Below, in pieces: positions 319 through 51,400 of a DNA stretch of 64,000 nucleotides (positions within the stretch are counted from its first letter, which is position 1; every line of letters starts with the position of its first letter). Where the stretch lies: assembly GCA_964603935.1 (NCBI GenBank), contig CAZRWL010000001.1, forward strand, positions 2,306-66,305, in the 5' to 3' direction. Origin of the DNA: an uncultured Gammaproteobacteria bacterium. Its GTDB lineage: Bacteria > Patescibacteriota > Microgenomatia > Levybacterales > UBA12049. The position numbers were made by a program, and so were the translations under genes. The notes beneath the pieces were generated by a model that did not search any database, was not told the DNA's origin, and saw only the letters and a list, made by a program, of their open reading frames with translations.

Positions 319-684
319 ATGAATCGGAGAAAGCGGCCTTTTTGGCTTTTGGTTACTAGCCTTTTGTCTTTAGCCGGCATTATTTTTTTAATTAATTTTT
401 ACTCCCCATCAGCGCAATTTTCCTTGCCCCTCGGAGCCTTGGCAAAGGGGGGAATTTTCAATTTTCAATTTTCAATTCTTTCTGTTTTCTTTTTATTATT
501 TTTTACTTTCCTCTTGTCTCTTATCACTTATCTCCTACGTAGTTCTCGGAGGGCTTTCTTAATTGGATTTTTGACGATAATTTATCTTATTTTCCGCATG
601 CTTAATTTAAACAGCCCCTATTTTCTGCTCCTGCTCATCGCTCTTTTCGTGAGCCTTGAACTTTTCTTCAAAAAACAAGCATAA
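319..684 (+). CDS. Hypothetical small membrane protein (3-4 predicted TM helices); contains in-frame heptamer repeat
   Basis: 121-aa ORF, strongly hydrophobic. No recognisable family. Confidence 0.3.
   Translation: MNRRKRPFWLLVTSLLSLAGIIFLINFYSPSAQFSLPLGALAKGGIFNFQFSILSVFFLLFFTFLLSLITYLLRSSRRAFLIGFLTIIYLIFRMLNLNSPYFLLLLIALFVSLELFFKKQA
453..476. repeat. Heptanucleotide tandem repeat (AATTTTC)x3.4
   Basis: gaattttcaattttcaattttcaattc, translated in-frame as FNFQFSI within ORF 319-684. Confidence 0.9.
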
Positions 685-4078: not shown

Positions 4079-4137
4079 TGCAAAAATTCTCATAGCAGCG
4101 ATCTTCATAGCTTCGATTTGCTCATTCTTCGATTCCA

Positions 4138-4357: not shown

Positions 4358-5152
4358 ATGATTGACGTGCACTGTCATCTGAATTTTCATGCTTTTGCAA
4401 AAGATACCGATAAAGTTATCGGAAACGCATTTGCAGCCGGAGTTACCAAAATCATTAATGTGGGGACTAAAATTGACTCAAGCCAAACCGCTGTAGATTT
4501 GGCGCAAAAATACGAAAATTTATATGCAATTGTTGGAATCCATCCCCACCACGCTGATAAATTAGAAAGCAATTGGCTTGAAGAGTTGGAAGAATTAGCA
4601 AAAAAACCAAAAGTAGTGGCAATTGGCGAGATTGGAATGGATTATTATTCTTACAAATCAAATGCTATTGTTGACCCCAAATTGCAAAAAGAAGTATTCA
4701 TAAAACAGATTCAGTTGGCGCATAAACTAAATCTTCCTCTGCAAATTCATAATCGTCAGGCAGGAAAAGACATAGTGGATATACTGCTAAATCATAAGTC
4801 ATATCTCTTAAATCCCCCGGGCATGTTTCACTGCATGTCAGGAGACTTAGATTTGTTGAAAAAAGTCCTGGATTTTGGATTTTATGTTGGCTTTGATGGC
4901 AATATTACCTATAATGGTATCGCTAAAGGAGAAACAACAGCTCTATCCGAGCTGGTAGAATATGCTCCCTGCGATAGAATTGTGACTGAAACAGACAGTC
5001 CTTTTTTGACGCCCGAGCCCCACAGGGGTAGCAGAAATATACCCTCCTATGTTATAATTACAGCTAGGAAAATTGCGGAAATTAAGAAAATTCCCTTTGA
5101 AGAATTAGCCGATAATGCAATCCAAAACGCAATAAGACTCTTTAAGCTATGA
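4358..5152 (+). CDS. tatD: TatD-family metal-dependent hydrolase (DNase)
   Basis: MIDVHCHLNFHAF start, GEIGMDY motif and a D..G...FDG pattern typical of the TatD family. Confidence 0.85.
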   Translation: MIDVHCHLNFHAFAKDTDKVIGNAFAAGVTKIINVGTKIDSSQTAVDLAQKYENLYAIVGIHPHHADKLESNWLEELEELAKKPKVVAIGEIGMDYYSYKSNAIVDPKLQKEVFIKQIQLAHKLNLPLQIHNRQAGKDIVDILLNHKSYLLNPPGMFHCMSGDLDLLKKVLDFGFYVGFDGNITYNGIAKGETTALSELVEYAPCDRIVTETDSPFLTPEPHRGSRNIPSYVIITARKIAEIKKIPFEELADNAIQNAIRLFKL

Positions 5153-5195
5153 CACGTTCGACTATCGCTCAGTGTCATAGTGAGGAATTCGAACT

Positions 5196-15395: not shown

Positions 15396-16301
15396 ATGTC
15401 CATTTTTTCGTCATACAAAAAAATATTTTTATTAGGCTTCATGGTTATGGTTCTGGTAATAACTCCTCTTTTCGTATTTGTAGCTCAGCAAAACCAGCAA
15501 ACAAAAAGCAAAGCATCCGCATCCACCACTCTTGCTTTTGAACCTATATCTTCCGCAGTAAAAGTAGGGGAGATTTTAACTTTAAATGTCATATTGGACC
15601 CGGGAAAAAGCACATCATCTCCAAATTTAGTCTCTTTTGTAAAACTAGTCATTAACTTTGACCCGAGAAAATTTACAGCTGAAAACACATGCCTTACCGA
15701 AAACACTGTTGCCAACACCTTAACTACCAAATTGGAAGGGCCGATATGCGAACCAGGAAAAGCATCTATTTCTTTGTCTATCGGCGCTGATCCTGCCAAG
15801 GTCGTAACAGAAGTAACCAAAATTGCCGTACTTCAGCTTAAAGCTTTATCCCCAACTGAAGGCAATAATCCCAGCAGTATCACATTTGATATTTCCAACA
15901 ATAATACCCAAGTTTTGTCAATTGCATCAACAGACAAAACAAGCGAAAATGTGCTAAATTTATTATCAACCAGCACGCCTGCTTCGATAACCATTAACCC
16001 CGCGCCATCTGCTCCCGGAGCTAGTCCAACTCCAACCCCAACTCCTACTCCAGCTACTGCCCCATCCGCATCCGCTGGAAGCGCTCCTGCTGCTCCTCAA
16101 ACAGGAGATGCCGTTGTTAACGCAGGAACGCCTGAAGCAATTGCTCCGACTGCTGCTCCTGAGATAATTGCTCTAGCTCCGCAGCCCCCACCTACCGAAA
16201 TAGTCCTTCCCCCAACAGGTCCTGAAGAAAACATATTGGGAATTGGGGCAATTGGGATAATACTTACAATTATAGGCAGCGCTTTATTTATGCTCCTTTA
16301 G
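15396..16301 (+). CDS. Cell-surface protein with cohesin-like domain, Pro/Thr/Ala-rich linker and C-terminal LPXTG-type anchor (LPPTG + TM)
   Basis: N-terminal signal anchor, a cohesin-like beta domain, PTPTPTP linker, then ..IVLPPTGPEENILGIGAIGIILTIIGSALFMLL at the C-terminus. Confidence 0.55.
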   Translation: MSIFSSYKKIFLLGFMVMVLVITPLFVFVAQQNQQTKSKASASTTLAFEPISSAVKVGEILTLNVILDPGKSTSSPNLVSFVKLVINFDPRKFTAENTCLTENTVANTLTTKLEGPICEPGKASISLSIGADPAKVVTEVTKIAVLQLKALSPTEGNNPSSITFDISNNNTQVLSIASTDKTSENVLNLLSTSTPASITINPAPSAPGASPTPTPTPTPATAPSASAGSAPAAPQTGDAVVNAGTPEAIAPTAAPEIIALAPQPPPTEIVLPPTGPEENILGIGAIGIILTIIGSALFMLL

Positions 16302-18109
16302 TTGTTTTCTTCAATCATCGAAAGAAGAGCTTCTTGGGGAATAGAAATTTTTGCCTGCTCGATCATTCGCGATTTTCCTTTTTTCTGGGCTTCTAATAAT
16401 TTATCCTTTCTTCTTCTGTCCCCGCCTGACATTTTCGCCAAAACATCTTTCCTGAAAGGAGGTATTTCTTCCCGAGTAACAATCTCTCCGTTCATAACCC
16501 CTTGAATAATTTGTCTGAATTGCTGTCTAGGCAAAGAGTTTTTAAGTCTTTCAGCTTTCTTCCTCACCGCACTAACTGCCTCGTCTTTGTATGCAAGCTC
16601 AGACAAGACATCTATTGCAATATCATTCACTTTTATTTCTACCTTTGCCAAATCTGCTTCTTTATATGATGTAACTTCATAATCTAGGCTTGCAAATCCT
16701 TCCGACGCGGATTTCAGATCTGAAGAAATTCCTCTAATAAACATGCTGAATGGCATATCATAAGATAATACCGCATAGGACTCATGGTAATTTAAGTCCA
16801 AAAGATTGCCCTTTCTGGTCTGGCAAATATTCATTACCGGACCGACATACTCTTTTGGCGTATAAACTACAAGCTTCATGTATGGTTCAAGCATTATTCC
16901 GTCAGGTGTTTTTTCGTATAAGACTTGGGGCATTGTCAGCAATATTTCAAGATTAAATTCCTGTTTTATTCTTTCTTTAACAATCTGCGCATGCAAAAGC
17001 CCCAGAAAGCCTATTCTAAATCCGCTTCCCAAATATGACGAGTACTCCTCAGTGTAGGTTAAAGCCGTATCGTTCAAAGTTAATTTTGCTAAAGATTCTC
17101 TTAAGTAAACAAAATCATTCGTATCCTTAGGATATGCTCCAAAGAACACCATAGGTTTTGGAATCTTATATCCCGCCAACGCTTCAACTTTTCCATCTTC
17201 CATCTTCCATCTTCCATCTTCAGCCGTTACTGTGTCTCCAACGCGCACTTTTCTAATATCTTTTATTCCTGTAATAACATAGCCGATTTCGCCTGTTGAT
17301 AAGCTTCCCGAAGATATCAAGTGAGGAGAAAAATAACCTAAATCAGTTACTTCTGTTTGAATATTATTCTGATAGAGCTTGAGACTGTCTCCTTTATTCA
17401 AATGTCCGTCAACAATCCTGACGTACGCGACTACTCCGCGGAATTCGTCATAGACCGCATCGAAAATCAAACCGCGAAGAGGCTTATCTTTTTCTCCAAT
17501 TGGGGGCGGCAGTTTTTTTACAATCGTATCTAATAATAAATCCACATTTTTGCCGGTTTTGGCCGAAATATATATTATTTCCTCTTTTTTAAACCCAAAG
17601 GTCTCTATTAATTCTTGAGCTGTCATTTCTGTCCGGGCGCTTTCCAAATCTATTTTATTAACAACAGGAATCATTATCAAATTCTGTTTTTGAGCTTCTC
17701 TAAAATGAGCAACAGTCTGCGCCTGAATGCCTTGTGTCGCATCAACCAATAAAATAGCTCCCTCGCAAGCAGCCAGAGTTCGGGAAACTTCGTAGGAAAA
17801 ATCAACATGCCCGGGAGTATCTATCAAGTTCAAAATGCATTCCTCACTCATATTGTCATTCTGACGAATGTCAGAATCTAGATACTGAACCGAGTTCAGG
17901 ATGACACGCGACTTATACCTCATTCTTACCGGCGCTAATTTGATTGTAATTCCCCGCTTACGGCTGATTGGATTCTGGTCCAGAAATTGCTCCTGCATCT
18001 TATCTTTTTTGACAGTACCTGTTATTTCCAAAAACCTATCCGCAAGAGTAGATTTCCCGTGATCCACATGGGCAATAATCGCAAAATTCCTGATCTGTTT
18101 CTGCTCCAT
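16298..18109 (-). CDS. lepA: Translation elongation factor 4 (LepA) with ~19-aa in-frame insertion in G domain
   Basis: NFAIIAHVDHGKSTL, IDTPGHVDFSYEV and the LepA C-terminal domain are all present. An extra segment SRVILNSVQYLDSDIRQNDNMSEEC lies between G1 and G2, relative to E. coli LepA. Confidence 0.9.
   Translation of the reverse strand: MEQKQIRNFAIIAHVDHGKSTLADRFLEITGTVKKDKMQEQFLDQNPISRKRGITIKLAPVRMRYKSRVILNSVQYLDSDIRQNDNMSEECILNLIDTPGHVDFSYEVSRTLAACEGAILLVDATQGIQAQTVAHFREAQKQNLIMIPVVNKIDLESARTEMTAQELIETFGFKKEEIIYISAKTGKNVDLLLDTIVKKLPPPIGEKDKPLRGLIFDAVYDEFRGVVAYVRIVDGHLNKGDSLKLYQNNIQTEVTDLGYFSPHLISSGSLSTGEIGYVITGIKDIRKVRVGDTVTAEDGRWKMEDGKVEALAGYKIPKPMVFFGAYPKDTNDFVYLRESLAKLTLNDTALTYTEEYSSYLGSGFRIGFLGLLHAQIVKERIKQEFNLEILLTMPQVLYEKTPDGIMLEPYMKLVVYTPKEYVGPVMNICQTRKGNLLDLNYHESYAVLSYDMPFSMFIRGISSDLKSASEGFASLDYEVTSYKEADLAKVEIKVNDIAIDVLSELAYKDEAVSAVRKKAERLKNSLPRQQFRQIIQGVMNGEIVTREEIPPFRKDVLAKMSGGDRRRKDKLLEAQKKGKSRMIEQAKISIPQEALLSMIEENN
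17855..17913. repeat. Dispersed ~45-bp repeat family, copy C, inserted in-frame within lepA; two adjacent perfect hairpins
   Basis: ATTCTGAC-gaat-GTCAGAAT (17858-17877) and CTGAAC-cga-GTTCAG (17885-17899), then ttcaggatgaca shared with 12628-12639. Confidence 0.5.
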
Positions 18110-25125: not shown

Positions 25126-27477
25126 ATGAATTTTTCCGACTTTTTATCCGTTGTGCAATGGTGGACAGTAATTTTTATTATTGGAGCTATTTTTATTCCA
25201 ATAACGAATTTAATTCTTTCAAATTTTTTTGACAAAGGCTATATTTTTTCAAAAATTATAGGGACAGCTGCAATAAGTTACGCTGTTTTTGTTCTCGGAT
25301 TTTTAAAAATCCTCCCCTTCACTCAAGCAACAATCTTTATTGTAATTGCCTTATTTGCAGGTATAAATATACTAATTTTCAAAAAAAAAATAAAGTTAGC
25401 AATTAAACAATTTGACAATGAAGCAATTAAAATAATTATCTTCGAAGAGGCTCTTTTTTTGGGAGTTCTATTTTTCTGGTCTTTTATTCACGCTCATCAG
25501 CCAGACATTCATGGTTTGGAAAAATACATGGATTACGGATTTATTAATTCGATATTGAGAGCCAAATATTTCCCGCCTCTAGATATGTGGTTTACTCCAT
25601 TCTCAATTAATTATTATTATTTCGGCCATTTAGTTACAGCCGTGCTAACAAAATTGTCCCTCCTTCCCTCACCAATTACTTTTAACCTAATGCTCTCGAC
25701 AATTTCTGCGCTATCTTTTGTTTCCGCTTTCTCAATCGGAGCTAATCTTTTCAAGATTTTAATGAACAAGGGACGGGTGGCAAAAGAGGAAGGGCTCCCG
25801 ACCCCACTTCGCTTGAAAGCTTCGAGGGGCAAAACAACGCTAGAGTCAGCGGGCTTGCCAGCCGTAGCTTTAGCGAAGGTTGGAGGGAAACTTTTGACAG
25901 GACCCGTCCTCGCAGGACTTTTGACGGCATTTATTTTAAACTTTGCGGGAAATTTACATACCCTGCATCTATTCTTTAAGCCTTATCTTAATGAAAATCC
26001 TGTGCCTTTTTGGAATTTAATATTCTCCCCCCAAACATTCCCCAATAATTATTGGTATCCAAATGCAACGCGTTTTATTGAAAATACGATCCACGAATTT
26101 CCCATTTATTCCTCTGTTGTTTCCGATCTTCACGGCCACTTCCTGGATCTCCCTTTTGTTTTACTAACAATAGCCATTCTCTTATCGCTAGTACTAAAAT
26201 CGCAAATCACAAATCACAAATCACAAATAAACCTTAATGTTCAAAATTCAAAACGTTTTGGATTTTTTAATTTTAGAAATTTGAATTTATTTGGAACTTG
26301 GAATTTTGAATTTAGAATTTTATTGCTGGCATTTTTGCTGGCAATAATGTATATGACGAATGCTTGGGACGGAATAATCTATTTCATACTAGCTACTCTT
26401 ATTATTGGCTATACTATTCTAAAATCACTAATTAATCCTTCAGAAATTAAAAATGCAAAATTCAAAAATTTTATTACTTTATTTATTCCCAAGATTTTAT
26501 TATTAGGATTCTTCTTTTTTCTATTCTCTCTACCCTTTAATTTAAATTTCAAGCCTTTTGCTTCCGCAATTGGCATACTTTGCGCGCCGGATTTCTTAGT
26601 GCGTTTGGAAAAATTCGGACCTTTCATTTTTGAAGCGAATCATTGCCAGCACTCTCCCGTATGGCAGTTATTTATTCTTTATGGCTTCTTTTACTTTTGG
26701 GTAGTTTCGTTCGTTATATTTCTTTTTAAAAATTTAAAAACAAAAATTGAAAATTTATCAGTATCCGATATATTCGTTGGAATTCTGATAATATTATCTA
26801 CCCTGCTTATTATTATCCCTGAATTTATCTATGTAAAAGATATTTATCCCGCGCACTACCGCGCCAATACGATGTTCAAGCTCGTTTATGAATCCTTCAT
26901 TATGCTTTCGTTAGCCTCGGGCTACATCGTAATAAGAATAATTAATAGTTTCAAATTTGTTTATTTGTTTATTGGCAGTATTGGATTATTCCTCGTAATG
27001 GTCTATCCTTATTTTGCGATTAAATCTTATTTTGGAGATTTAAAGGCTTACTCCGGACTTAATGGAACAAACTACCTTAAGCCGCTTTATCCTCAGGACT
27101 ACGATGCTATTTTATGGATAAATAAAAATATCAAAGGACAACCTGTAATTTTGGAAGCTCAAGGCGACTCGTACACGGATTATGGACGTATATCTACTAA
27201 TACCGGATTGCCGACAGTTTTGGGCTGGACTGTTCACGAATGGCTTTGGCGCGGCGCCTATGATATTCCAGCCCCAAGAATTGCGGAAATCGCAGAAATG
27301 TATGAGTCTAAAAACCCTAAGGAAACAAAAAAATTATTAAAAAAATATAACGTATCGCTTGTATTTTTGGGCGACCTTGAACGGCAAAAATATCTCAATC
27401 TTAACGAAGAGAAATTTAACTCATTTGGAAAAATAATTTACCAAAACAACCAGACAAAAATTTACAAAATTAATTAG
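25126..27477 (+). CDS. Large polytopic membrane protein of the YYY (TIGR03662/DUF2298) family
   Basis: SINYYYFGH motif and more than 15 TM helices. Contains a GC-rich insert (25765-25920) and variant heptamer repeats (26197-26320). Confidence 0.55.
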   Translation: MNFSDFLSVVQWWTVIFIIGAIFIPITNLILSNFFDKGYIFSKIIGTAAISYAVFVLGFLKILPFTQATIFIVIALFAGINILIFKKKIKLAIKQFDNEAIKIIIFEEALFLGVLFFWSFIHAHQPDIHGLEKYMDYGFINSILRAKYFPPLDMWFTPFSINYYYFGHLVTAVLTKLSLLPSPITFNLMLSTISALSFVSAFSIGANLFKILMNKGRVAKEEGLPTPLRLKASRGKTTLESAGLPAVALAKVGGKLLTGPVLAGLLTAFILNFAGNLHTLHLFFKPYLNENPVPFWNLIFSPQTFPNNYWYPNATRFIENTIHEFPIYSSVVSDLHGHFLDLPFVLLTIAILLSLVLKSQITNHKSQINLNVQNSKRFGFFNFRNLNLFGTWNFEFRILLLAFLLAIMYMTNAWDGIIYFILATLIIGYTILKSLINPSEIKNAKFKNFITLFIPKILLLGFFFFLFSLPFNLNFKPFASAIGILCAPDFLVRLEKFGPFIFEANHCQHSPVWQLFILYGFFYFWVVSFVIFLFKNLKTKIENLSVSDIFVGILIILSTLLIIIPEFIYVKDIYPAHYRANTMFKLVYESFIMLSLASGYIVIRIINSFKFVYLFIGSIGLFLVMVYPYFAIKSYFGDLKAYSGLNGTNYLKPLYPQDYDAILWINKNIKGQPVILEAQGDSYTDYGRISTNTGLPTVLGWTVHEWLWRGAYDIPAPRIAEIAEMYESKNPKETKKLLKKYNVSLVFLGDLERQKYLNLNEEKFNSFGKIIYQNNQTKIYKIN
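26197..26320. repeat. Variant heptamer repeats (AAATCAC)x4 followed by AATTTTGAATTT-type degenerate units
   Basis: aaatcgcaaatcacaaatcacaaatcacaaataaa ... ttgaatttatttggaacttggaattttgaatttagaatttt, in-frame, giving peptide KSQITNHKSQIN... Confidence 0.8.
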
Positions 27478-28540
27478 AGGGAATTTCTGGAACATGACAA
27501 TTGCCGACTGTTATTTCACAAGCGACAAACTTCTGGATCTCTGAAAAATTATCGTTCCCAACTCTTGGAATTAAAACCCACTGATTTTCATAAACTGAAG
27601 ATATTGGAGGATTTACCAAAAGACCGGGTCTCTCTTCCTGATTGTCTCCGTAATCCAATACAGCGCTTTCTATTTTCGCTTCTCTCATTTTATTTGCAAG
27701 CTTTATGAAATCATCTATTTCCCCCTCTTTTATATTTGTGTCTATACTGCCTTTCAAAGCTCCATAGACACTAACTATTTTTGCCGGATTAAGTAAAAAA
27801 TTTATGGAAAAAATTTTATCTTTCACTGCCTTTATTACCTGTTCCTGTCTTTTGGATCGTGCGAAATCCGTTCCATTTGATCCTTCCGCATGTCTGGATC
27901 TCACAAATTCAAGAGCTGCTTCTCCGTCTATATGGGTAACTCCCTTATCAAAATGCAGATGTTTGTACCTGCAGATAAATTTTTCCTGAATCTCTATTTC
28001 GGCAGAAATGGTAGCAACAAACGTCCCAATATCTTCATCGGAATATCCACAGGAATCATTTTCTCTTCCTGCTATGGGATACTTATAGTCATCAAAAGTG
28101 CTTTGAACATCAATGTCTATACCCCCAAGAATATCTAGAGTTTTGACAAAGCCGTCAAAATCAATTTTCACCGTATAGTCAATTGCATGCCCTATTACCT
28201 TCTTGACAACTGCGTTAGATAGCAAAATTCCCCCGCCCTTTTGTTTTGCTTCGGCTGTGGAATACGCAGTGTTAATTCTGGCATTTAAGTCGGTTATCCA
28301 TAAATCTCTTGGAACAGAAACCAGAGTGACTTTGTTATTTTCAGGATCAAGGCTTGCAAAAATCATAGTGTCTGTTAAATCAGGTCCTTGATGAATACCT
28401 CCTCCAACCCCTAACAAAAGAATGTTAATTCTGTCTTGAGTTTTCTTAAGGTCTATATTTTTATTGAAAGCCGTTTCTCCGACTTTCCCAAGAAATATCA
28501 AAAATAAAATTGAAAAAATTATCAATATTTTTTTATGCAT
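27470..28540 (-). CDS. LytR-CpsA-Psr (LCP) family cell-wall glycopolymer phosphotransferase
   Basis: N-terminal TM helix, NILLLGVGGG..DLTDTMIFASLDP..VSVPRDLW LCP core. Confidence 0.75.
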   Translation of the reverse strand: MHKKILIIFSILFLIFLGKVGETAFNKNIDLKKTQDRINILLLGVGGGIHQGPDLTDTMIFASLDPENNKVTLVSVPRDLWITDLNARINTAYSTAEAKQKGGGILLSNAVVKKVIGHAIDYTVKIDFDGFVKTLDILGGIDIDVQSTFDDYKYPIAGRENDSCGYSDEDIGTFVATISAEIEIQEKFICRYKHLHFDKGVTHIDGEAALEFVRSRHAEGSNGTDFARSKRQEQVIKAVKDKIFSINFLLNPAKIVSVYGALKGSIDTNIKEGEIDDFIKLANKMREAKIESAVLDYGDNQEERPGLLVNPPISSVYENQWVLIPRVGNDNFSEIQKFVACEITVGNCHVPEIPSN

Positions 28541-29198
28541 TTTTTATAATTTCCAAAAATTCTAAGACACCAAGACTTGCTGTTCCAACCCCTACGCCGT
28601 CTATATGAGGCATTGCGGTAAAAGATGATACATTTCCGGGATTCACGCTCCCGCCATACAAAACAACTTTTACGGGATTGTTACTCTTTGTAAATTCAGC
28701 AACTTCATTGGCATTACGAGGATTATCCGGAATGCCCGTACCAATTGCCTCTATTGGCTCGTATAGCACAATATCTGTATTTTTGGGTACAAACGTATTT
28801 CTGCTTTGAATGCAAAAAATTGAAATTAAATTATTGGCTTTGGCTAAATTAACTTTACGTTCCAACATCTCATCGTTTTCTAAAAAATTTTTTCTTCTTT
28901 CGGAATGTCCAATAATTACATAGTCCGCTAATTCCTTTATTTGCTTTGCGTTGATTTCGCCGGTATACGCTCCTTCACTAAAAGGCGAGATGTTTTGCGC
29001 TCCCAGCTTTATATTCAATTTGTGATTTAAGATATAAGATTTAAGAATGGGAAGAAGCGTAAAAGGCGGACAAATAATGATTTCCTTCCCTGAAATTGAA
29101 AATTGAAAATTGAAAATTGAAAATTTATGGAGCCAATCTTTAGCTTCAGATTCGGTTTTATTGGACTTCCAATTGGCAATAATATAGAGTTTTTTCAT
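28533..29198 (-). CDS. tpiA: Triosephosphate isomerase with in-frame heptamer-repeat insertion
   Basis: ANWKSN, IIGHSERR, YEPIEAIGTG and YGGSV motifs. The inserted loop FSIFNFQFSISGKE is encoded by (GAAAATT)n at 29091-29126. Confidence 0.85.
   Translation of the reverse strand: MKKLYIIANWKSNKTESEAKDWLHKFSIFNFQFSISGKEIIICPPFTLLPILKSYILNHKLNIKLGAQNISPFSEGAYTGEINAKQIKELADYVIIGHSERRKNFLENDEMLERKVNLAKANNLISIFCIQSRNTFVPKNTDIVLYEPIEAIGTGIPDNPRNANEVAEFTKSNNPVKVVLYGGSVNPGNVSSFTAMPHIDGVGVGTASLGVLEFLEIIKNA
29091..29126. repeat. Heptanucleotide tandem repeat (GAAAATT)x5 (= AATTTTC on coding strand) inside tpiA
   Basis: tgaaattgaaaattgaaaattgaaaattgaaaattt. Confidence 0.9.
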
Positions 29199-29233
29199 GC
29201 TATAATTACAAAGCCGCGGATTTATTATACGCT

Positions 29234-31099
29234 ATGAATAAGGACTTTCTCAAGGACTTAAACCCTGAGCAGCAAAAGGCAGTTTTAGCTACTGAGGGTC
29301 CAATTATTATTCTGGCAGGCGCGGGCTCGGGAAAAACCCGTGTTCTAACTTACAAAGTCATGTACTTAACAAAAGAGAAAGATGTAAATCCTTTTAATAT
29401 TCTCATGATAACTTTTACCAATAAAGCAGCCAATGAGATGAAAGAACGCGTGCGGCAATCTCTTACTAATGACCAAAGACTAACGACTAGAGACCAGCCT
29501 GCAATCGCTACTTTTCATTCTCTCTGCGCGAAAATCTTAAGAATTGAAGGTAAATACATAGGTCTTCCCCCGCAATTTGCGATTTACGATACTCAAGACC
29601 AAATAGATGCAGTAAAAGAAGCTATGAGAAGGCTTGACATATCAATAAAAGATTACAAACCGTCATCAGTCTTAGCCAATATATCTCAAGCAAAAAATGA
29701 ACTTATAAACGAATCCGAATATCCAAAATACGCAAGGGGTAATTTTCAGGAAAAAGTTGCAAAAATTTATTTTATTTACCAAAAAGTTTTGTCTGAAAAT
29801 AGCGCGCTTGATTTTGACGATCTTCTTGCAAAAACGGTATTTTTATTTGAAAACAATCCTCGAATTCTTCAGAAATATCAGAATCGTTTTCAGTACATAT
29901 TAATTGACGAATATCAGGATACAAACAAAGCGCAATATATTTTGACCAAATATTTAGCTAAAAAATGGAATAATATTTGCGTTGTAGGAGATTTCTCTCA
30001 AAGCATTTATTCATGGAGAGGCGCTGACTTTACCAATCTCACTCGTTTTAAGGAAGATTTCAAAAATACGAAAACATTTTCCCTTTCTCAAAACTATCGC
30101 TCTACACAAAAAATCTTGGATGCTGCATCATCTGTAATCTCTAAAAATACTACTCATCCAGTTCTGACTCTTTGGACGGAAAATTCGGAAGGTGAAGAAG
30201 TTTCAATCTTTGAAGCGCGAAATGAACAACAGGAAATAGAATTTATTGTAAATCAAATTTCAACCCTTCGGCTCCGCTCAGAGCAAGATTTTAAATATTC
30301 GAATATTGCGGTACTGTATAGAACCAATGCTCAATCGCGAATTTTGGAAGAAATTTTCCTGCATAACAGCATTCCCTATATACTTATTGGGGGAACAAGG
30401 TTTTATGAAAGAAAAGAAATTAAAGACGTACTTGCTTATTTAAGAAATCTTAACAACAAAAGCGATAAAATTTCATTAAAGCGCATAGAAAAAATTGGCA
30501 AAAGAAAAATGGAAAAATATTTAGAATTTTCCCGTGAACGGGATCCCGATGCTTCGGGACAAGAAACTATCGAGCTTCTAGACGACGTCCTTAAACAAAC
30601 AGAATATCTTAAATTGTATGACGAAAAAGACGAAGAAGATAGACAAAGACTGGAGAATATTAAGGAACTTCGCTCTGTTGCCCTCAATTTTCCAGACTTA
30701 ACAAATTTCCTGGAAAATGTTTCCCTCGTAGAACAAGAGTATTTACCTGATAACGCCAATGGTCAAAACAAAAAAGATGCGGTAACTTTTATGACTTTAC
30801 ACGCAGCAAAAGGCTTGGAATTCCCTTATGTATTTATGATTGGGATGGAAGAAGGGTTATTTCCCCATTCCCGGTCGCTAATGGACAAACATGCGCTTGA
30901 AGAAGAGAGAAGACTTTGTTATGTTGGAATGACCAGAGCTCGCGAAAGACTTTTTTTAACTTATGCCAGAAGAAGAATTTTCTTTGGACAGAAAATTTCA
31001 AATGTTATTTCCAGATTCGTGTTGGAATTGCCAAGAAATGTAATCGAACAAAATATTCATGCAATCAGCAAGGAAAGCGATACGCAAGATTATTTATGA
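29234..31099 (+). CDS. pcrA: UvrD/PcrA-family ATP-dependent DNA helicase
   Basis: Walker A AGAGSGKT, LNPEQQKAV, and helicase motifs through the C-terminal domain. Confidence 0.85.
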   Translation: MNKDFLKDLNPEQQKAVLATEGPIIILAGAGSGKTRVLTYKVMYLTKEKDVNPFNILMITFTNKAANEMKERVRQSLTNDQRLTTRDQPAIATFHSLCAKILRIEGKYIGLPPQFAIYDTQDQIDAVKEAMRRLDISIKDYKPSSVLANISQAKNELINESEYPKYARGNFQEKVAKIYFIYQKVLSENSALDFDDLLAKTVFLFENNPRILQKYQNRFQYILIDEYQDTNKAQYILTKYLAKKWNNICVVGDFSQSIYSWRGADFTNLTRFKEDFKNTKTFSLSQNYRSTQKILDAASSVISKNTTHPVLTLWTENSEGEEVSIFEARNEQQEIEFIVNQISTLRLRSEQDFKYSNIAVLYRTNAQSRILEEIFLHNSIPYILIGGTRFYERKEIKDVLAYLRNLNNKSDKISLKRIEKIGKRKMEKYLEFSRERDPDASGQETIELLDDVLKQTEYLKLYDEKDEEDRQRLENIKELRSVALNFPDLTNFLENVSLVEQEYLPDNANGQNKKDAVTFMTLHAAKGLEFPYVFMIGMEEGLFPHSRSLMDKHALEEERRLCYVGMTRARERLFLTYARRRIFFGQKISNVISRFVLELPRNVIEQNIHAISKESDTQDYL

Positions 31100-32031
31100 A
31101 AGACGATTTGCCCAGTCATCCCCTGCAATCAAAGGAATGGGGAGAATTTAGAAAAAAAACAGAAGTCAAAGTAATTAGAATAGGTGGAGTTCAAATGACA
31201 GTCCACAAAATTCCCCATATGCCTTGGACAATCGGCTATGTACCAAAAGGACCTTTGCCTACGCAAGATATGATTTCCGATCTCAAAAAAATTGGCAAAC
31301 AGGAAAAATGCATTTTTATTCAACTAGAACCCAACGCCTCAAAAATTTCAAATTTCAAATTTCAAATTTCAAATTTGGGGCTTCGGCCGTCTGTTCATCC
31401 TCTTTTTACCAAATATACCTTCATTCTTGATCTGACAAAATCAGAAGAAGAATTATTAAAAGCAATGCATCCGAAAACTCGTTACAACATCAAAGTAGCG
31501 CTTAAACATGGTGTTAAAATTGTTGAAGATAATTCGGACGGGACATTTGAAACTTATTTAGATCTCACAAAAGAAACAACCAAGCGTCAAGGTTTTTATG
31601 CACACACAGAAATGTACCATCAGCTAATGTGGGATACTCTTAAAAATAAGATAGCTCACTTACTTTTGGCAAAATATGGGAAGCAAACGCTGGCGGCGTG
31701 GATTTTATTTGTTTACAAAGATACCCTTTATTACCCATATGGAGCTTCCTCAAGCTTACATAGAGAAACAATGGCATCCAATCTAATGATGTGGGAAGCA
31801 ATAAGGTTTGGAAAAAAATTAGGTCTTAAAAGATTTGACATGTGGGGAGCGCTAGAGCCAAATCCGGACAAGAATGATTCCTGGTATGGATTTCACAAAT
31901 TTAAAGAAGGGTATGGACCGCAACATGTGGAGTTTTTAGGAAGCTTCGACCTGATTATAAACCCCGTGCTTTATCAACTCTATAAAATATTAGACAAGAT
32001 TAGATGGATATTTCTAGGGCTTAAAAAATGA
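31096..32031 (+). CDS. FemAB-family peptidoglycan interpeptide-bridge aminoacyltransferase (start corrected; ATGA overlap with helicase stop)
   Basis: PLQSKEWGEFRK N-terminus and FemX-like GNAT-fold C-terminal half. The upstream extension of ORF 30916 lies inside the helicase gene and is rejected. Contains the in-frame repeat peptide KISNFKFQISNLG. Confidence 0.7.
   Translation: MKDDLPSHPLQSKEWGEFRKKTEVKVIRIGGVQMTVHKIPHMPWTIGYVPKGPLPTQDMISDLKKIGKQEKCIFIQLEPNASKISNFKFQISNLGLRPSVHPLFTKYTFILDLTKSEEELLKAMHPKTRYNIKVALKHGVKIVEDNSDGTFETYLDLTKETTKRQGFYAHTEMYHQLMWDTLKNKIAHLLLAKYGKQTLAAWILFVYKDTLYYPYGASSSLHRETMASNLMMWEAIRFGKKLGLKRFDMWGALEPNPDKNDSWYGFHKFKEGYGPQHVEFLGSFDLIINPVLYQLYKILDKIRWIFLGLKK
31341..31376. 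repeat. Heptanucleotide tandem repeat (AAATTTC)x5 inside FemAB-family gene
   Basis: aaaaatttcaaatttcaaatttcaaatttcaaattt, followed by ggggcttcggcc. Confidence 0.9.
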
Positions 32032-41250: not shown

Positions 41251-41333
41251 TTTTCAATTTGAAATTTAAAATTTGAAATGAAAATTTAATTTTAAAAATT
41301 CAATGAAAATTAAAAATTGAAAATTTAAAATTA
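41251..41333. repeat. Degenerate A/T heptamer repeat tract (GAAATTT/GAAAATT-like units) in intergenic region
   Basis: ttttcaatttgaaatttaaaatttgaaatgaaaatttaattttaaaaattcaatgaaaattaaaaattgaaaatttaaaatt. Confidence 0.6.
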
Positions 41334-42986
41334 ATGGAAAATAATCTTATTGATCAAATCAAAACCATAATCAAAGGGGATGTCTTAGGAGATGAAAAAA
41401 CTCTTCAGGAATATTCCCATGATGCCAGTCTTTTTGAAGTAAAACCCCAAGCAGTCGTCTTCCCAAAAGACGTGGAGGATATAAAAAAACTGGTTAAATT
41501 TGTATCGGAAAATAAGAAAAGCAATCCCTCGCTTTCTCTAACCGGAAGATCTGCGGGAACAGATATGGGAGGAGGGTCTATCAATGATTCTATCATTGTG
41601 GAATTTAATAAATATTTTAATCATACCCCGCAAATAAACGGTACTGTTGCCACAACAGAACCCGGTGTTTTTTATCGGGATTTTGAAAAAGAAACATTAA
41701 AACACAACCTTATTTTTCCTTCTTATCCTGCGTCCAGAGAAATCTGCGCAATGGGCGGAATTTTGAATAATAATTCCGGCGGAGAAAAATCACTGCAATA
41801 TGGAAAAACAGAAAAATACATTGAGGCAATGAAAGTTGTATTAAGTGATGGAAATATTTACGAGTTCAAAAAACTCTCAGAACAGGAGCTCCAAGAAAAA
41901 ATATCGCTCAAAACATTTGAAGGCAAAATTTACAGAAAGATATATAAACTCATTATTGATAACCAAGATAAGATTAGCAAAGCCAAACCTAATGTTTCTA
42001 AAAATTCCGCAGGATACTATCTATGGAATGTTTACGACAGGGAGAAGAAAACTTTTGACCTAACGCAGTTATTTGTCGGAGCACAAGGGACATTAGGACT
42101 TCTGACGGAAGCAAAGGTTAAGCTTGTCCCCGTACCCATACACCGGGAGATGGAAATTATTTTCCTGCGCGATCTTGCACATTTAGGAGAGATTATTGAT
42201 GCAGCCTTATCTTTGCAGCCGGAAAGTTTTGAGTCATATGACGATAACACGCTAAAACTGTCTCTGAGATATTTCCCTGAATTCGCTCACCAGCTGGGCA
42301 TTGCCGGACTTATCCAGGCAGGCATAGCGTTTCTGCCGGCATTTTTACAAATGCTTATCGGCAGACTTCCAAAATTGGTTCTGCAAATTGATTTTGCCGG
42401 AAATGATCTTAGCGAACTTAAGAAAAAAATAGATACTCTGCATGCAAAGCTTAAACCCTTTCACCCTCAAACACGTATCGCAATTGACGATCAGGAAAAA
42501 AAATATTGGCTGGTCAGACGGGAAAGTTTTAATTTGCTGCGCAAAAAAATCAGAAACAAACACACCGCGCCTTTTATTGATGATTTCGTAATCAACCCGC
42601 ATCAAATTGCAGAAGTCATTCCAAAAGTAACTTCAATTTTGAAAAAATATCCGGAATTTATTTTCACTGTGGCAGGTCATGTCGGCAATGGAAATTTCCA
42701 TATTATTCCATTGGCTGATATTACAAACAAAAAAGTACGTCAGGCCATCCCAATTATTGCCGACAAGACTTACGATATTATTGCCGAATATAAAGGTTCT
42801 ATAACCGGAGAGCATAATGATGGACTTATCCGTACCCCCTATTTGAAACAAATGTATGGCGAAAAAATAATAAAAATTTTCGAAGAGGTTAAAAATATTT
42901 TCGATCCCCAAAACATCTTTAATCCCAGAAAAAAAGTTTTTGGAGATTTGGATTTCGCCCTAAACCACATCAGAGAAAATTGGTAA
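41334..42986 (+). CDS. FAD-linked oxidase (GlcD/D-lactate dehydrogenase family)
   Basis: FAD-binding PCMH-type N-terminus (LTGRSAGTDMGGGS) and a C-terminal FAD-oxidase domain. Confidence 0.6.
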   Translation: MENNLIDQIKTIIKGDVLGDEKTLQEYSHDASLFEVKPQAVVFPKDVEDIKKLVKFVSENKKSNPSLSLTGRSAGTDMGGGSINDSIIVEFNKYFNHTPQINGTVATTEPGVFYRDFEKETLKHNLIFPSYPASREICAMGGILNNNSGGEKSLQYGKTEKYIEAMKVVLSDGNIYEFKKLSEQELQEKISLKTFEGKIYRKIYKLIIDNQDKISKAKPNVSKNSAGYYLWNVYDREKKTFDLTQLFVGAQGTLGLLTEAKVKLVPVPIHREMEIIFLRDLAHLGEIIDAALSLQPESFESYDDNTLKLSLRYFPEFAHQLGIAGLIQAGIAFLPAFLQMLIGRLPKLVLQIDFAGNDLSELKKKIDTLHAKLKPFHPQTRIAIDDQEKKYWLVRRESFNLLRKKIRNKHTAPFIDDFVINPHQIAEVIPKVTSILKKYPEFIFTVAGHVGNGNFHIIPLADITNKKVRQAIPIIADKTYDIIAEYKGSITGEHNDGLIRTPYLKQMYGEKIIKIFEEVKNIFDPQNIFNPRKKVFGDLDFALNHIRENW

Positions 42987-45481: not shown

Positions 45482-48400
45482 TTAGAAATTCAGCTTATGC
45501 AGTTTCCTGTAGAATAGCTCTCTGTTCAAGACTAGGACTGATGTGATCATCAAGACAATCAGGATAAGCATAATGTTCTTAGCAGGAAAACCTTTAGCTG
45601 TTTGAGTCTTGCCTTGAGGTGTTTCTTTTTCCTGAGTTGCCCCTAGAACTTCTTTTTCATTCTGACCTATTTGATCTAATTGAGTAATTAAGTTATCATC
45701 TGCTAAATCAGAAATAGTATTGCTGTTTCCCTCCCCATTTGCCGTAACTGTGGAAGTTGTATTTGAAGAAGCAGACGACAGAGTGGGAGTGGGAGTTGGA
45801 GCAGCAGTTACAACAACAGGAGCAACGGTTTGAGTAGTAGCTATATAATAGGAAGCTTTGGTTGCCTGAAACGTGCATGTCCCATCCGCAACAACACATT
45901 TGTGAGGCGGGAGAATGCCGTCATTTGTCCAGTTGTCCGTACCTGTTCTTGAGCGCAAAACACTGAGCGTTTGACCGTTAAGAGCGGTTCCTACAAAAAT
46001 ATTTAATGTGATGGGATTGCTGAACGAAAGTCCATGATTTGGAATACCCCATTGCAGCTTGCCGTTAACCACTATCCCCTCGCCTACTCCTGTTATAGAG
46101 TCGCTTGTAGGTTCAATCGCTGTGAGAGCGGCAATATCCAGATTGCTTCCGTCGATCTTGGTAATTTCTGTTCCGTCAGGCACTGTTACGAAACTTGTTC
46201 CTCCGTTAACAGTAACGTTAACAACAGATGTTCCTAAGGAAATTACTTTGGAAGTGATTGTCTCTCCGTTTAGGGGAGCAAATTTACCCTGTCCGTCAAT
46301 ACTTTTGAAAACCGCATTGCCAAAGCTTAATCCTTCGATTTGGTCTCCTCCGGAAATGGTAACAGCGTGCTTCCCATTTCCTCCTCTTGGCGTGGATAAT
46401 TCCCAGTTGCTTTGCAGAATTTCCCTGACATTGTATGATCCGGGAATTAAATCGGAGAATTGATAGTTACCAAATGCATCGGTTACGGTTGAGAATTCCC
46501 CTGTATCCAATATACTATTGTCGTTGGCATCCAGGAAAATCGTCCAGCCGGAAAGCGCTAATTCATTTACATCTTTGACCCGATTTATATTTGCATCCTG
46601 AAAGACTATTCCGCTAATTGCGCCTTTCTTGTCTTCATCAGGCACAACTACGTCCAAAGGAGCAGTTACCGTAATAGCTGCAGCTATGGGACTTATTCTT
46701 TTGGCAGGACCAAAACTATACGCCCGCAGGAAAACCTGATGCGAGGGGTGCGAGGTATAAGTTTGATTTTGGTCAACAAAAGGAGATGTTTGATTTATGT
46801 GTTCGCGGATATCATCCGAAGTTCCCATAATCCCGTCAGGTCCGGGTAAATTGGTTGCGCGGGTTAAGACCATGAAGTTGGAATGGCTTAACGGATTGAA
46901 AAGAGGATCATCCGGCATAAGAGGTACGAACACTGTGCCGCTTTTTCCCTTGTTAACCAGGTCAAGACCATGATCAAAAAACTGGCCGAATAGAATAAAC
47001 CATGAATTGAATGATGCGGACAAACCCATATCCGGAGCAACATTTGGAATAAATAGAGTGCCTGCAAAAGGATCGGGCAAGGTAAGTTCTCCTGCGGCGG
47101 CAACAGCTGCGGGATTGCTTGGGGTTTGATCAACAATCAAATTGCTGATCAAACGCGGTTTGGAATCAAACACAAAACCATTGGTTTGAGCGTAAGATGT
47201 TAAGTCCCCTACCTTTAACGGTCCCGGCCCATCCAGGTCAATACTAACTATTTCTCCCTCTCTAAATATCGGAGTTGTCAAACGGGGGAATATCCGGTCT
47301 GCTGCGCCAAAACTTGATTGGCCGGGCACAATATTATTCCATGATCCGTCAATCGTACGAAGACCCCAAGGCAAAGTATCTTTGGGGATTAGATTCAATA
47401 ACGGTGTGCCCGCCGCATGAGCTTCCGCAATCCTGATTTGGTCTAAAATGAATTGCAGGTCAGATCTTATCAGGGTCAGTCCTGATCCGCCAAGGAAACT
47501 GCTGCCTGCAGATATTGCCAAAATACCCTTAAGCTTCGGAGATTCTACTTTGTTAAGACCATGCTCCAGATCTATTGTCTGATCGGCAAACTGTAATTTT
47601 TCAATGTTGCGGATTGTGTCTATGCCATTGTTTTCTTTGCCCCCATTGTCAGCTCTATTATCGGTTACTGTTATTCTGCCCTGAGCATCAGGCAAGCTAA
47701 TAGTATAGTCGGCAAAATTACCTGAAAATACGGCTGTGTCAATATCATTTTCGGCAGTACCCGATACCAATATTTCACGGATTATTCTGATTTGACCCGG
47801 ATTTATTTTGCCTTCAAAGATCGCTTCCTGAAGCTCTGTCATGCTGTCAGCAGTCAGAATTTCAATGCCGGGATCATTGCTGTCTCTTACGCTAAGACGC
47901 GCATTAAGCCATGCGTCCCCGTCTATAAGATCGTTTCCGCCGCGTCCCTCAATAATATCGTTTCCGCCCCCGCCCAGAATAATATTACCGCCGGAAAAAG
48001 AGGTAATATCGTCTCCAAGCAAACTTTGCAAACCGTCAATCAGCGCAATTTGACCTGCATTATTTAATGAATTGTTTTGGCCGGAGTTACCGTCAATTTT
48101 TGAGAGTTCAATGCTGCCAAGATTGTCTCCCCGCAGAATGTCGTTGAATTGTCCGCCTGATAAACCTTCGACCGAATCGAAGCGGTCGCGAAGAGTATCT
48201 ACTTCCGGCAACATTAAGCCTTTGAAAAACATATCCGCGTTAGCCGGCTGAGGATCATTTTTATAAGTAACCCAGTCAAAACCCTGCATGCCTTCATTGC
48301 GTTCAATACCCGGATCGGAAAGCATAATGTCATCTCCTGATTCGGAGTCGTAATCGTCGTCTCCTCCGCCACCTATAATAACATCATTGCCGATAGTTGA

Positions 48401-51400
48401 GCTGTTTTGAAACGGATTGCCGTTATCGCCCTGAAGCAGATCGGCCTGCGCTCCGCCTTCAATCCAATCATCGCCTTCATTGCCAAACACCGTATCGGCA
48501 GCATCCCCTGCCAAAATAAAATCATTCCCCTCTCCGCCAAAAATCTCTTTGGGATCTCTTCCTCCGACAACAAAGTCATGGCCTGATCCTCCCAGGATAA
48601 GATCAATACCCGAACCCGCATTAATCACATCATTGCCCTCTCCGCCCTTGATATTGTCGTCGCCAAAGATGTCGGTCAAAATATCATCCCCTGTTCCTCC
48701 GATTATAAAATCATTGCCCTCTCCGCCTTCCAGACGGTCGTTTCCGCCATCTCCCCACAGTGTATCGTCTCCTTCGCTTGAGCGCATTTTGTCATTACCT
48801 TCGGTTCCTCCCATAACAATGTGCTCAATACCTGTATAGCGGATAGTGCCGTCAGGCATGATAATTGTGTCTGAGGGAAGCGTTGACGGATCCAGGGGAT
48901 CTATGTCAGCCGCTTCAATATTAAAAGCCGGATGGGAGAAAATGTCATGCGGCGGATGCTTTATTCCGGAAGTATTACGCATCGCAAGTTCCGCAAACGA
49001 GTTTTGCTCAAGCTGAGTAAGAAAATTTAATCCTGCGTTGCGGGACAAATAGTAAAGCCTGTCGCCGTCCTGCAGTTTTTCCATCTGCGTTTCAAAAACA
49101 AAGTTAAAAGTAGAACCCAGAAGTCCGCCGAACGGCATTTGTTTTTCCGCAAGACCGCCTATCCAAAAATCAACATCATTAACACCGGTAATAATCCCCT
49201 TATCCGTGCTTGCCCATGCGCCCGTACTATTTAAGAAATCAAGACGATCCTCCGGCGCTCCCTCACCGCCAAGCACCAATAGTGTTGCTGCTGCGCGTTT
49301 GTCCGCAAGAGTTACGGCGTCCGTAATGGCCGTGTGCGTGCCATACGCGGCAATAAAATTAATTAAAGACTCCGGATGTCTAATGCCAAGTTTAAATTCT
49401 ACCCAGCTGCCATAGGGTTTTAAAGCAGGGTCGCCTGCAGTTGCCAAAAAGAATTGAGCGCGGGCCGAATTAAGAGACGGAATACCCGTATCACGGCCCC
49501 TTGCTAAATTTATCGTGGCAAGGTCCAAGGGTAATCCCAATAGATTATTGCGCAGTGACTCTGTTACAAATTCGTCAATTTCGCTGCCAACCTGTCCAAT
49601 CATACCAGCTGCAATAGCTCCGGCCGCCGCATCCGGAGTTGTTCCGCTTTCTAAAAATTCCAGAGGATTTAAGAAAGCCTGAATCAAACCGATATCATTA
49701 CTTGTGCCATCCGGATTAGTGCGGGCGATTGTATCGGTCAGCATGGTGTGGCCAAAGCGGTAAACCGTATGAGCGAACTCGGCTGCAATTGCAGGATCAA
49801 TATCCGTATGATAACCGCTGAATACATTAACCTGCGGCTGAATTTTGCGCGCGAATTCCTCGAATACCAAATGCTGATATTGCATTTCCGTGCCGAATTT
49901 AGCTGCTTGAAACAAACGCTCGCCATTCCAGGAAAGACCGTTAATTGCCTCTTGAGTTATTGGGAAAACTGCAGGCACGGTACCGGGCATAAGCCATTGA
50001 GTTAAGAATTCCAGATCGCCCGTATCCAAAATTACATTCTTAGTATATTCAACCAGACGATTATGTTCGGAATGAAAAATATGATGAACAGAGGTAAGGC
50101 CGATATTTTCATTAACCCTGCCGTCTCCTGCTATAAAATGAGCGTCTAAAAGTTCGTTATCATAGGTACCAGGTTCGGATAATCCGATAACGCTATCCGA
50201 ATCGGGTTTAAGCGGTACGCCTCTGGTATTTACAGGATTGGCGTCATGAGCAATATCAGCCAGGAAAGGATGTCCGCTTCGTATTGCGCCTGTAGCATCA
50301 ACCGGAGATAAGGGATTCCCTTCTACTAAAATTGGGGAATCTGCGGGGCTTAATCCGGGCATCACCAACTGAGGAAAACCGCTTACGCCTTTTAAGAAAT
50401 TTCCGTATGCGTCAACAGCCAAAAGGGGCAGGTCAAGAACATCAAGATCATCGAGTAAAATACCCAGCATGTTTTTCGCCTGAGCTTTAACCTCTGCCCA
50501 GGTAGCCATTCCTCCTCCAAGATTGCGGCTTTCAATCAGCCGTCCCGTCGCAACCGGAGCATTTACTCCATCGGATACTAAAATGTCAAATGTAAATGCG
50601 CCTGCTATTGTAGGTGTCCAGGAAAAAACTCCGCTTACGGGATCTATAGTTGCGCCTTCCGGAGCGTCATTTCCCAGTGAAAATGTCAAAATGTCGCTAT
50701 CAGCATCCGTGGCGGCAACAGTGAAGGAAACAGGCGTGCCAAGCGTGATAGACAGATTTGGAATTGGCGCGATTACAGGAGGAGTGTTTGCCGGAGAAGG
50801 CAAGGGGGCGGGTTCAGGGATTGGCAAAGGCGTTGGTAAAGGTTCGGGCGCGGGTATTGCATTAACTGTTACAGCAGTTGATCCTGTTACTTCTGCGCTA
50901 ACGGCGGTAATTATCGTTACACCTTCGGAAAGAGCAGTAAATGAACCTGTTGAGGAGTTTATTAATCCCACCGCAATATTAGAACTTGTCCACGTAACTG
51001 CTGCTGCAATCGGATTGCCGAATTGATCAAGAGCAGCTGCGCTAAACGCCTGAACTGCTCCAACATTAATCGCAGGAGCTGCAGGACTAACGTTAATTAC
51101 AGCTAAAACAGGTTGAACTGTAACTGTTGTTGATCCGCTAACTGCTCCGCTAGTGGCGGTAATTGTAGTTATGCCGCCTTTAAGAGGAGTGAATACTCCG
51201 GTTGCGGAATCAATTGTTCCAACCAGAGGATCAGAGCTTGTCCACGATACTGCTGCTGCAATCGGATTGCCGAATTGATCAAGAGTAGCTGCGCTAAATG
51301 CCTGAACTGCTCCCACATTGATTATTGGCAAAACAGGAACTACATTAATTGTGTTTAAGACTGGGGCTTCCGCTGCCACATTGATTGTTCTTATTACCTG

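Follow-up and report, generated by a model that had tools for sequence, protein, structure and literature searches.

The gene for triosephosphate isomerase (TIM), tpiA, of an uncultured bacterium that is named in GenBank as a gammaproteobacterium and placed by GTDB in Levybacterales (Patescibacteriota; Microgenomatia; UBA12049) contains, within its coding sequence, a perfect tandem array of a 7-nucleotide (nt) unit. The window analyzed here is a 64,000-nt stretch of this genome (assembly GCA_964603935.1, contig CAZRWL010000001.1, positions 2,306 to 66,305 of the forward strand), and positions in it are counted from its first letter. The array encodes a normal part of the TIM protein, not an extra loop, and belongs to a clade-wide class of period-7 tracts. 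Probably, it is a coding heptanucleotide simple sequence repeat (SSR) that is driven by slippage and filtered by the constraints of reading frame and protein fold, with no dedicated function.

The tpiA open reading frame (ORF) occupies positions 28533..29198 on the minus strand and encodes 221 amino acids (aa) according to the ORF list. Within it, Tandem Repeats Finder (TRF) detects a perfect period-7 tract at 29093-29125 (33 bases, 4.7 copies, 100% match), which reads on the coding strand as (AATTTTC)x4 plus AATTT, followed by a unit that is one base short. The original prediction, made from the letters of the window, described this tract as (GAAAATT)5; the in-frame heptamer array is real but consists of 4.7 perfect copies, not five full units, and the segment that it was said to encode is tract-encoded from K25 to S36 (KFSIFNFQFSIS), whereas the G-K-E that follows lies outside the tract. 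The expected number of runs of at least 26 lag-7 matches in 64 kb is 6e-11, and tracts of at least three copies, six of which are present in the window, did not occur in any of 100 Markov-1 simulations, so that a chance origin of the tpiA tract is excluded. Rfam and tRNA scans yielded no match at or near the tract.

The identification of the gene product as a TIM with intact catalytic motifs is confirmed. The protein matches PF00121 with 188.4 bits (cutoff 20.1), residues 5-220 aligning with profile positions 2-244 of 245, and its score of 118 bits against TIGR00419 (NCBIfam), which is below the strict equivalog cutoff of 130.6, fits a divergent, short form of TIM. The motifs ANWKSN, IIGHSERR, EPIEAIGTG and YGGSV can be read directly in the sequence; the three catalytic residues, Lys in NWK, His in GHSERR and Glu in YEPxxAIGTG, are in place, as is the YGGS that binds phosphate, and N9, K11, H98, E100, E147 and G182-G183 are invariant in an alignment with 33 relatives. 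The alignment-based AlphaFold2 model (predicted local distance difference test, pLDDT, 91.4; predicted template modeling score, pTM, 0.90) displays the alternating strands and helices of a (beta/alpha)8 barrel. The closest solved structure is the TIM of Candidatus Roizmanbacteria (PDB 7r9b; phmmer E=4e-41), which Foldseek superimposes on the model with a TM score of 0.90, a root-mean-square deviation of 1.9 A and 36% identity (the TM score to 6bve is also 0.90). Judging from its sequence, the ORF encodes a bona fide TIM of the short type seen in the candidate phyla radiation (CPR), and the enzyme is predicted to be, most likely, normal and active.

The tract had been interpreted as an extra loop inserted after the first beta/alpha unit, an interpretation that the comparison with homologues does not support. 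The 120 best homologues, several of which are labelled Candidatus Levybacteria, Levyibacteriota or Patescibacteria, are all called as TIM ORFs and are mostly 214-223 aa long (full range 206-233 aa). The tract residues fall in alignment columns that are filled by all 33 relatives (consensus F-K-I-x-D-L-x-F-T-N-KEIIICPP). The span from NWK to CPP is 37 aa in the window protein vs 35 aa in five clade relatives that share its register; when the count is extended by one residue (NWK to CPPF), most of the 120 homologues have a span of 36-38 aa, and a hand count of alignments gives 35 aa for the T. maritima TIM (1b9b) and a longer span for 7r9b. In the tract region, the window protein is 2 aa longer than 1b9b, 1 aa longer than the Synechocystis enzyme (6bve), about 2 aa longer than the clade consensus and 7 aa shorter than 7r9b, so its net excess over homologues is 0-2 aa. 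The Roizmanbacteria enzyme is like the window TIM in its size of about 220 aa, its fold and its loop-6 motif, Y(E/D)PxEAIGTG, but differs in having the 7 additional residues in the alpha1-beta2 connection and no obvious heptamer-derived peptide. Given that homologues fill the equivalent columns and that the excess is so small, the tract segment is not an inserted extra loop.

In the AlphaFold2 model, strand beta1 comprises residues 4-9 and helix alpha1 residues 16-30, and a loop (31-37) then leads into beta2 (38-43). The tract is accordingly predicted to encode the final 1.5 turns of alpha1 together with the ordinary alpha1-beta2 loop. In TIM barrels, the alpha-to-beta loops are located on the 'stability face', opposite to the catalytic beta-to-alpha loops; hence a segment on the face away from the active site is expected to tolerate sequence change. 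With no extra loop and nothing that points to a glycolytic on/off switch, the TIM-specific claim of the original prediction matters little. For the annotation and structural alignment of CPR proteins, the case is a caution: a low-complexity 'insert' may be a homologous segment whose sequence has been overwritten by a repeat.

The tract site in orthologous tpiA genes

A codon-level comparison of the tract segment across related tpiA loci (orthologues with 50-75% identity) showed that most of the tpiA orthologues in the clade possess a heptamer tract at the site of the window tract, with a shared register where the spans are equal. The units differ among the loci, which are designated here by L numbers:

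Window: ATTTTCA
L011: AATTTTC, with one mismatch
L002: AATTACG, 4.4 copies, perfect
L007 (from the Levybacteria chromosome CP066685.1): ATTTACG, 4 copies, perfect
L003: AATTCAG, 4.4 copies, perfect
L001: AATTAGG
L012, L016 and L103: AATTTCC
L019: ATTTCAA
L009: AAATCTC
L017: degenerate AGATTAA, with LKIEDLRLVN as the peptide of the segment

The five genes with equal spans share one layout, exactly 8 nt + 4x7 nt + 9 nt. When the degenerate L017 tract is left out, the identity between units is 0.96 within a gene vs 0.70 between genes at equal positions. Positions 1, 3 and 4 of the unit (A-TT) are invariant, and positions 2, 5, 6 and 7 are variable; as read from the codons, the recurrent I/F/L residues of the peptide come from the A-TT core, although the peptides at the site differ chemically among orthologues (for example, ITNYELRITN, IQNSEFRIQN and IRNYELGIRE). 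Selection on the protein cannot give rise to a period of 7 nt that runs through all three reading frames, which implies a process at the DNA level. The pattern appears to be one of concerted evolution of a positionally conserved coding array. It indicates that non-triplet repeats can last for long evolutionary times in essential genes, in a fixed register and with their sequence turning over in concert, and that the amino acids at helix ends and in loops can be set by a mutational bias acting on the DNA; the tpiA tracts also offer a natural system for measuring the rates of slippage and homogenization under frame constraint.

The copy number of the tpiA tract is nearly constant among orthologues, at about 4.4-4.7, and the spans of the TIM proteins form classes that are 7 aa apart, which is the difference within the protein pairs P0116/P0067, P0008/P0044 and P0080/P0108. 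Both indels between sister tpiA genes that were resolved at the DNA level are exact 21-nt steps, as expected of a heptamer array under reading-frame constraint; in the tpiA genes of L100 and L101 (80% nt identity), this is a single indel of three units within the tract. The comparison of L102 with L103 reveals a 21-nt GC-rich palindrome inserted within the tract (CCCGCTTCGCAGCGAGGCGAG), and similar exact or near-exact 21-nt GC-rich palindromic cores are present in the tpiA tracts of L005, L015, L014 and L008. These palindromic inserts are absent from a sister sequence and encode peptides of the ..S-A-G.. or P-A-S type.

Two pairs of same-strain assemblies, made independently, agree exactly in their tracts, and no single-unit variants were seen among the orthologues and assemblies compared, consensus assemblies being such that minority alleles would be hidden. 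It had been pointed out that slippage by one unit would inactivate tpiA; this is arithmetically true, but the 21-nt steps and the identical same-strain tracts give no sign that such slippage is put to use. Two homologues of 206 aa, P0090 and P0091, were considered as possible frameshift products of the tract and rejected, because they lack 13 N-terminal residues and the truncation is upstream of the tract. On an unsupported, tract-free neighbor-joining tree of TIMs, the AATTTTC unit is polyphyletic, and in the closest relatives of the window, L017 (75% aa identity) and L018, the tract is degenerate or differs.

Two additional features map within and immediately upstream of tpiA:

29024..29046, minus strand: second, degenerate heptamer tract in tpiA, GATTTAA x3.3, 87% match (TRF), encoding part of ILKSYILNHK in helix alpha2
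29224..29253, minus strand: candidate sigma-70-like promoter of tpiA, TTGAGA-18-TATAAT, 11 of 12 positions, a consensus match only, inside the 5' end of the divergent helicase gene

The ILKSYILNHK peptide is kept in many relatives in the alignment, a similar tract is found in the L019 TIM, and the degenerate tract may be a fossil. The tpiA gene of L003 contains a third tract at 3402-3436 of that locus (EQIKNLKLKIKNC), near residue 135. Together with the tract at 29024-29046, it suggests that, with age, tracts turn into fixed, ordinary parts of the protein.

A spacer of 35 bp separates tpiA from the divergent gene for a UvrD/PcrA-like helicase (29234-31099). In L011 and L017, LAGLIDADG-like ORFs are found upstream of tpiA in place of the helicase. 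In L018, positions 343-1679, immediately upstream of tpiA, encode an RVT_1 reverse transcriptase and a bAvd-like protein, the accessory pair of diversity-generating retroelements.

Period-7 tracts across the clade

The excess of period 7 is not confined to tpiA. Perfect tandem repeats of at least three copies in the window include six with period 7, one with period 6 and none with periods 4, 5 and 8-12. In the ingroup loci (90 kb), the tract counts for periods 5-9 are 1, 2, 39, 5 and 0, each period of 5-12 other than 7 accounting for 0-5 tracts. As an outgroup control, we used TIM loci (409 kb) from a scan of metagenome contigs with general TIM patterns (YEPxxAIGTG), which retrieved almost exclusively generic TIMs with 30-39% identity. 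These loci contain 12 period-7 tracts, five of them from a single cyanobacterium-like locus (L039), so that the density of period-7 tracts is about 15 times higher in the clade than in the outgroup. Nearly all of the non-redundant tracts (40 of 43) are inside long open frames; their lengths range from 21 to 43 nt, with the mode at 32-36 nt, and their AT-rich units contain no stop codon in any of the three frames. The L039 locus (GC 0.39) carries, at 3763-7282, five long heptamer arrays (with units such as AGTTGAC, GAGTTAT and CAACTGT, up to 77 nt) that resemble the cyanobacterial short tandemly repeated repetitive (STRR) sequences and served as a positive control for the detection procedure.

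Outside tpiA, the following tracts were identified in the window:

453..477, plus strand: (AATTTTC)x3.6 in a 121-aa membrane-like ORF (319-684), encoding GIFNFQFSI and preceded by a GC-rich hairpin
7136-7161 and 7179-7197, plus strand: two AAATTTC tracts in a PMT_2 glycosyltransferase gene (6686-8161), encoding ISNFKFH and EISNFKL
17191..17221, minus strand: (GAAGATG)x4.4 in the LepA/EF4 gene (16298-18109), encoding EDGRWKMEDGK
26197..26321, plus strand: tracts in loops of a DUF2298 membrane protein (gene 25126-27477), encoding KSQITNHKSQI and FFNFRNLNLFGTWNFEFRIL
31343..31376, plus strand: (AAATTTC)x4.9 in a FemAB-like ORF (about 31100-32027), encoding KISNFKFQISNL
41256..41342, no strand assigned: degenerate AATTTGA/AAAATTA heptamer arrays, a rare intergenic case, between the gene for a transketolase C-terminal part and a gene for an FAD-oxidase

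The tract at 453-477 is 100% complementary to the tpiA tract, the two sharing the unit, the coding sense and the IFNFQFSI peptide. The LepA tract adds 6 aa to the linker between domains II and III compared to the Aquifex LepA (2ywe), a true gain of residues in a universal translation factor. In orthologues of the DUF2298 protein, the tracts are located in inter-helix loops, at equal sites but with different units in each genome, and the synteny around the FemAB-like gene is seen in L016 and L103. The units vary among loci within one genome, which led us to reject the possibility of one private unit per genome, with AAATTTC and related units favored clade-wide: AAATTTC is found at at least four loci in the window and also in L001, L009 and L019. 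Thus, the presence of such a tract in an essential enzyme, which had appeared unusual, is not so in this clade, where most tpiA orthologues carry one and where tracts also occur in the genes for LepA, the FemAB-like protein, the PMT_2 glycosyltransferase and the DUF2298 protein.

Several known repeat families invite comparison. The Rickettsia palindromic elements are in-frame selfish DNA in protein-coding genes, dispersed, about 100-150 bp long and conserved in sequence. The clade tracts are similar to these elements in being repeats that are in frame at surface-exposed sites of housekeeping genes, and the 21-nt palindromes in the tpiA tracts are reminiscent of them; unlike these elements, the tracts have only the periodicity in common and no conserved element sequence. 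The intragenic repeats of Borg elements reportedly have unit lengths divisible by 3 and give rise to disordered regions, whereas the tpiA unit is 7 nt long, is read in all three frames and encodes what is modelled as an ordered helix end and loop. In other respects, the tracts are like the amino acid tandem repeats (aaTRs) of Borg elements, namely, pervasive, perfect, fast-evolving, independently arising intragenic repeats that make new peptide segments (PMC9879509).

The closest parallels in the unit length are the heptanucleotide repeats of Xanthomonas (GGGAATC) and Nostoc (GGGGA(T/C)T) and the cyanobacterial STRR sequences, in which period 7 is likewise in excess, the arrays are short and dispersed and, at a given locus, differ in length and sequence among related genomes, and polymerase slippage has been hypothesized as the cause (PMC4692102). 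These known repeats, the STRR sequences included, are, however, strongly intergenic, G-rich and form G-quadruplexes, whereas the clade tracts are AT-rich, stop-free and mostly intragenic, and their arrays of 21-43 nt keep their position in orthologous proteins over deep divergence. For CPR, Levybacteria or Microgenomates, our literature searches turned up no report of heptanucleotide (heptamer) repeats. The class described here is a new, mostly intragenic and positionally conserved counterpart of the known excess of heptameric SSRs in bacteria.

Origin of the tracts

Under the slippage scenario, which we consider probable, a process at the DNA level that acts within the arrays, either slippage during replication or misaligned repair, would generate them and keep them homogeneous. 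Selection would let through only those changes that keep the frame, that is, multiples of three units, and would favor units without stop codons in all three frames, and the surviving changes would be limited to structurally tolerant segments of the protein; in tpiA, the A-TT core of the units would meet the need of the helix end and loop for I/F/L. Many bacterial genomes contain an excess of heptameric SSRs, for which slippage linked to the polymerase footprint has been put forward as a hypothesis; the clade tracts bear on the question, still open in studies of SSRs, of why bacteria favor heptamers (PMC4692102).

Several observations weigh against this scenario. Simple slippage explains neither the period of 7 nor the narrow length of the arrays (about 4.4-5 copies, near 33 nt), and, because single-unit slippage would cause a frameshift, a length-neutral homogenization has to be postulated. 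Furthermore, the polyphyly of AATTTTC, albeit on an unsupported tree, and its absence from the closest relatives, L017 and L018, combined with the identical unit at 453-477, make re-seeding or ectopic conversion possible. A tentative alternative, which we regard as possible but doubtful, is a lineage-specific, active DNA process that would write arrays of 7-nt units, about 33 nt long, into the coding sequences of Levybacteria-like CPR and continually re-homogenize them, with the 21-nt GC-rich palindromes as its second product. An unusual property of the replicase or of repair, or else a small templated or mobile element, could be candidates for such a process. If real, it would be a genome-wide generator of variation in loops and linkers, carried at fixed sites since the divergence of the clade even by core enzymes such as TIM and LepA.

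A related account, in our assessment rather unlikely, holds that the tracts and the 21-nt palindromes are dispersed selfish micro-elements, or products of ectopic conversion, that seed in frame, and that the tpiA tract was recently re-seeded, for example, from 453-477. The match between these two tracts in unit, coding sense and peptide, the recurrence of AAATTTC in the window and in related loci, the polyphyly of AATTTTC along with the degenerate state of the tract in the nearest relative, and the exact 21-nt GC-rich palindromic inserts that recur in tpiA tracts (L102 vs L103, L005, L015, L014 and L008) would all fit. However, a repeat search of the whole window detected only the tracts and the internal repeats of two giant ORFs, with no similarity in the flanks; the units differ widely among loci of one genome; and the site and register in tpiA are kept over deep divergence, as befits inheritance in situ. 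The association of GC hairpins with tracts is seen only in tpiA (2 of 9 hairpins vs 0.3 expected), too few cases to generalize, and no GC palindromes were found beside tracts at non-tpiA loci in the DNA sampled. An improbable possibility is that tpiA is a phase-variable contingency locus in which frequent gain or loss of single units near the 5' end of the gene switches TIM on and off, similar to neuO of E. coli K1. The tract, whose unit length is not divisible by 3, is in the 5' coding region, and there is a precedent in the AAGACTC variable number tandem repeat (VNTR) of neuO, which is 'on' only at copy numbers that are multiples of three (PMC3046976). Like the tpiA tract, this poly-psi VNTR of NeuO, encoded in prophage CUS-3, is a heptanucleotide in the 5' coding region in which three units make a 7-aa block, and only frame-preserving copy numbers yield the full-length protein (PMC3046976). 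The NeuO array, however, is long and hypervariable (2-93 copies), and forms a dispensable N-terminal extension of a surface-modifying enzyme that acts as a phase switch, whereas the tract in tpiA, with its 4.7 copies, lies within the fold of a housekeeping enzyme, not in a surface or host-interaction gene, and is constant in length among orthologues. The presence of the same class of tracts in the genes for LepA and the other proteins listed above, the exact three-unit steps of the DNA-level indels, the identity of same-strain tracts (with the proviso that a consensus hides minority alleles) and the calling of all 120 homologues as TIM ORFs of 206-233 aa also speak against a switch.

The remaining explanations fare worse. 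Selection of the hydrophobic peptide FSIFNFQFSIS for a new interaction, with the membrane or with a partner, is very improbable: its content of aromatic and hydrophobic residues is unusually high for a surface segment, and the peptide also occurs in a membrane-like ORF, but protein selection cannot account for a 7-nt periodicity in all three frames, and only the I/F/L positions derived from A-TT are kept in the chemically different peptides of orthologues. There is even less to recommend a role of the tract as a nucleic-acid element, whether it would serve the divergent helicase gene as a promoter, UP element or operator, or control the translation of tpiA as an mRNA structure. Although the spacer is only 35 bp long and the plus strand of the tract contains TTGAAA hexamers, with one 9/12 promoter-like match, such matches are at the chance level (2 found vs 1.1 +/- 1.1 in shuffles), the wholly different units of relatives leave no conserved motif, and the tract stays where a LAGLIDADG-like or reverse transcriptase gene replaces the helicase gene upstream; in the predicted mRNA fold (z = +0.44), the tract is unpaired, and it has no Rfam match. 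Finally, an assembly or sequencing artefact can be practically dismissed. Simple repeats are prone to mis-assembly, and the window protein is known from a single contig, but a read is long enough to cover the 33-nt tract, the reading frame is unbroken, and equivalent tracts are found at the same site in independent assemblies (NCBI, JGI, ENA and Logan). The original prediction named a lack of the segment in close relatives, together with a misassembly in the reads, as the outcome that would count against it; relatives possess an equivalent segment, and the tract is therefore not an artefact.

Other features of the window

Near the end of the window, a group I catalytic intron was detected at 63616-63806 on the minus strand (RF00028, 88.6 bits vs the gathering score of 50), adjoined by a degenerate heptamer array at 63858-63892. 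A tRNA scan found no tRNA genes in the window, and the host of the intron may be an rRNA gene that runs off the window end.

The DUF2298 gene contains, at 25786-25911 on the plus strand, an in-frame insert of about 125 nt with a GC content of 57% vs 38% in the window, which is absent from the orthologues in L016 and L009. The insert has a predicted structure of -51.7 kcal/mol and encodes GLPTPLRLKASRGKTTLESAGLPAVALAKVGG; within it, LPAVALAKVGG resembles LPLGALAKGG encoded by the GC-rich hairpin just upstream of the 453-477 tract. It may be an in-frame palindromic element. A 26-nt inverted repeat (2208-2233 / 2691-2716), 92% complementary and with arms that are palindromic around TTTAAA, brackets a 150-aa ORF (2238-2690).

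Two adjacent giant ORFs on the minus strand, 45482-52933 and 52954-59304, encode 2483 and 2116 aa, respectively, contain many internal direct repeats of about 250-270 nt with 60-89% identity, and are probably repeat-domain surface proteins.

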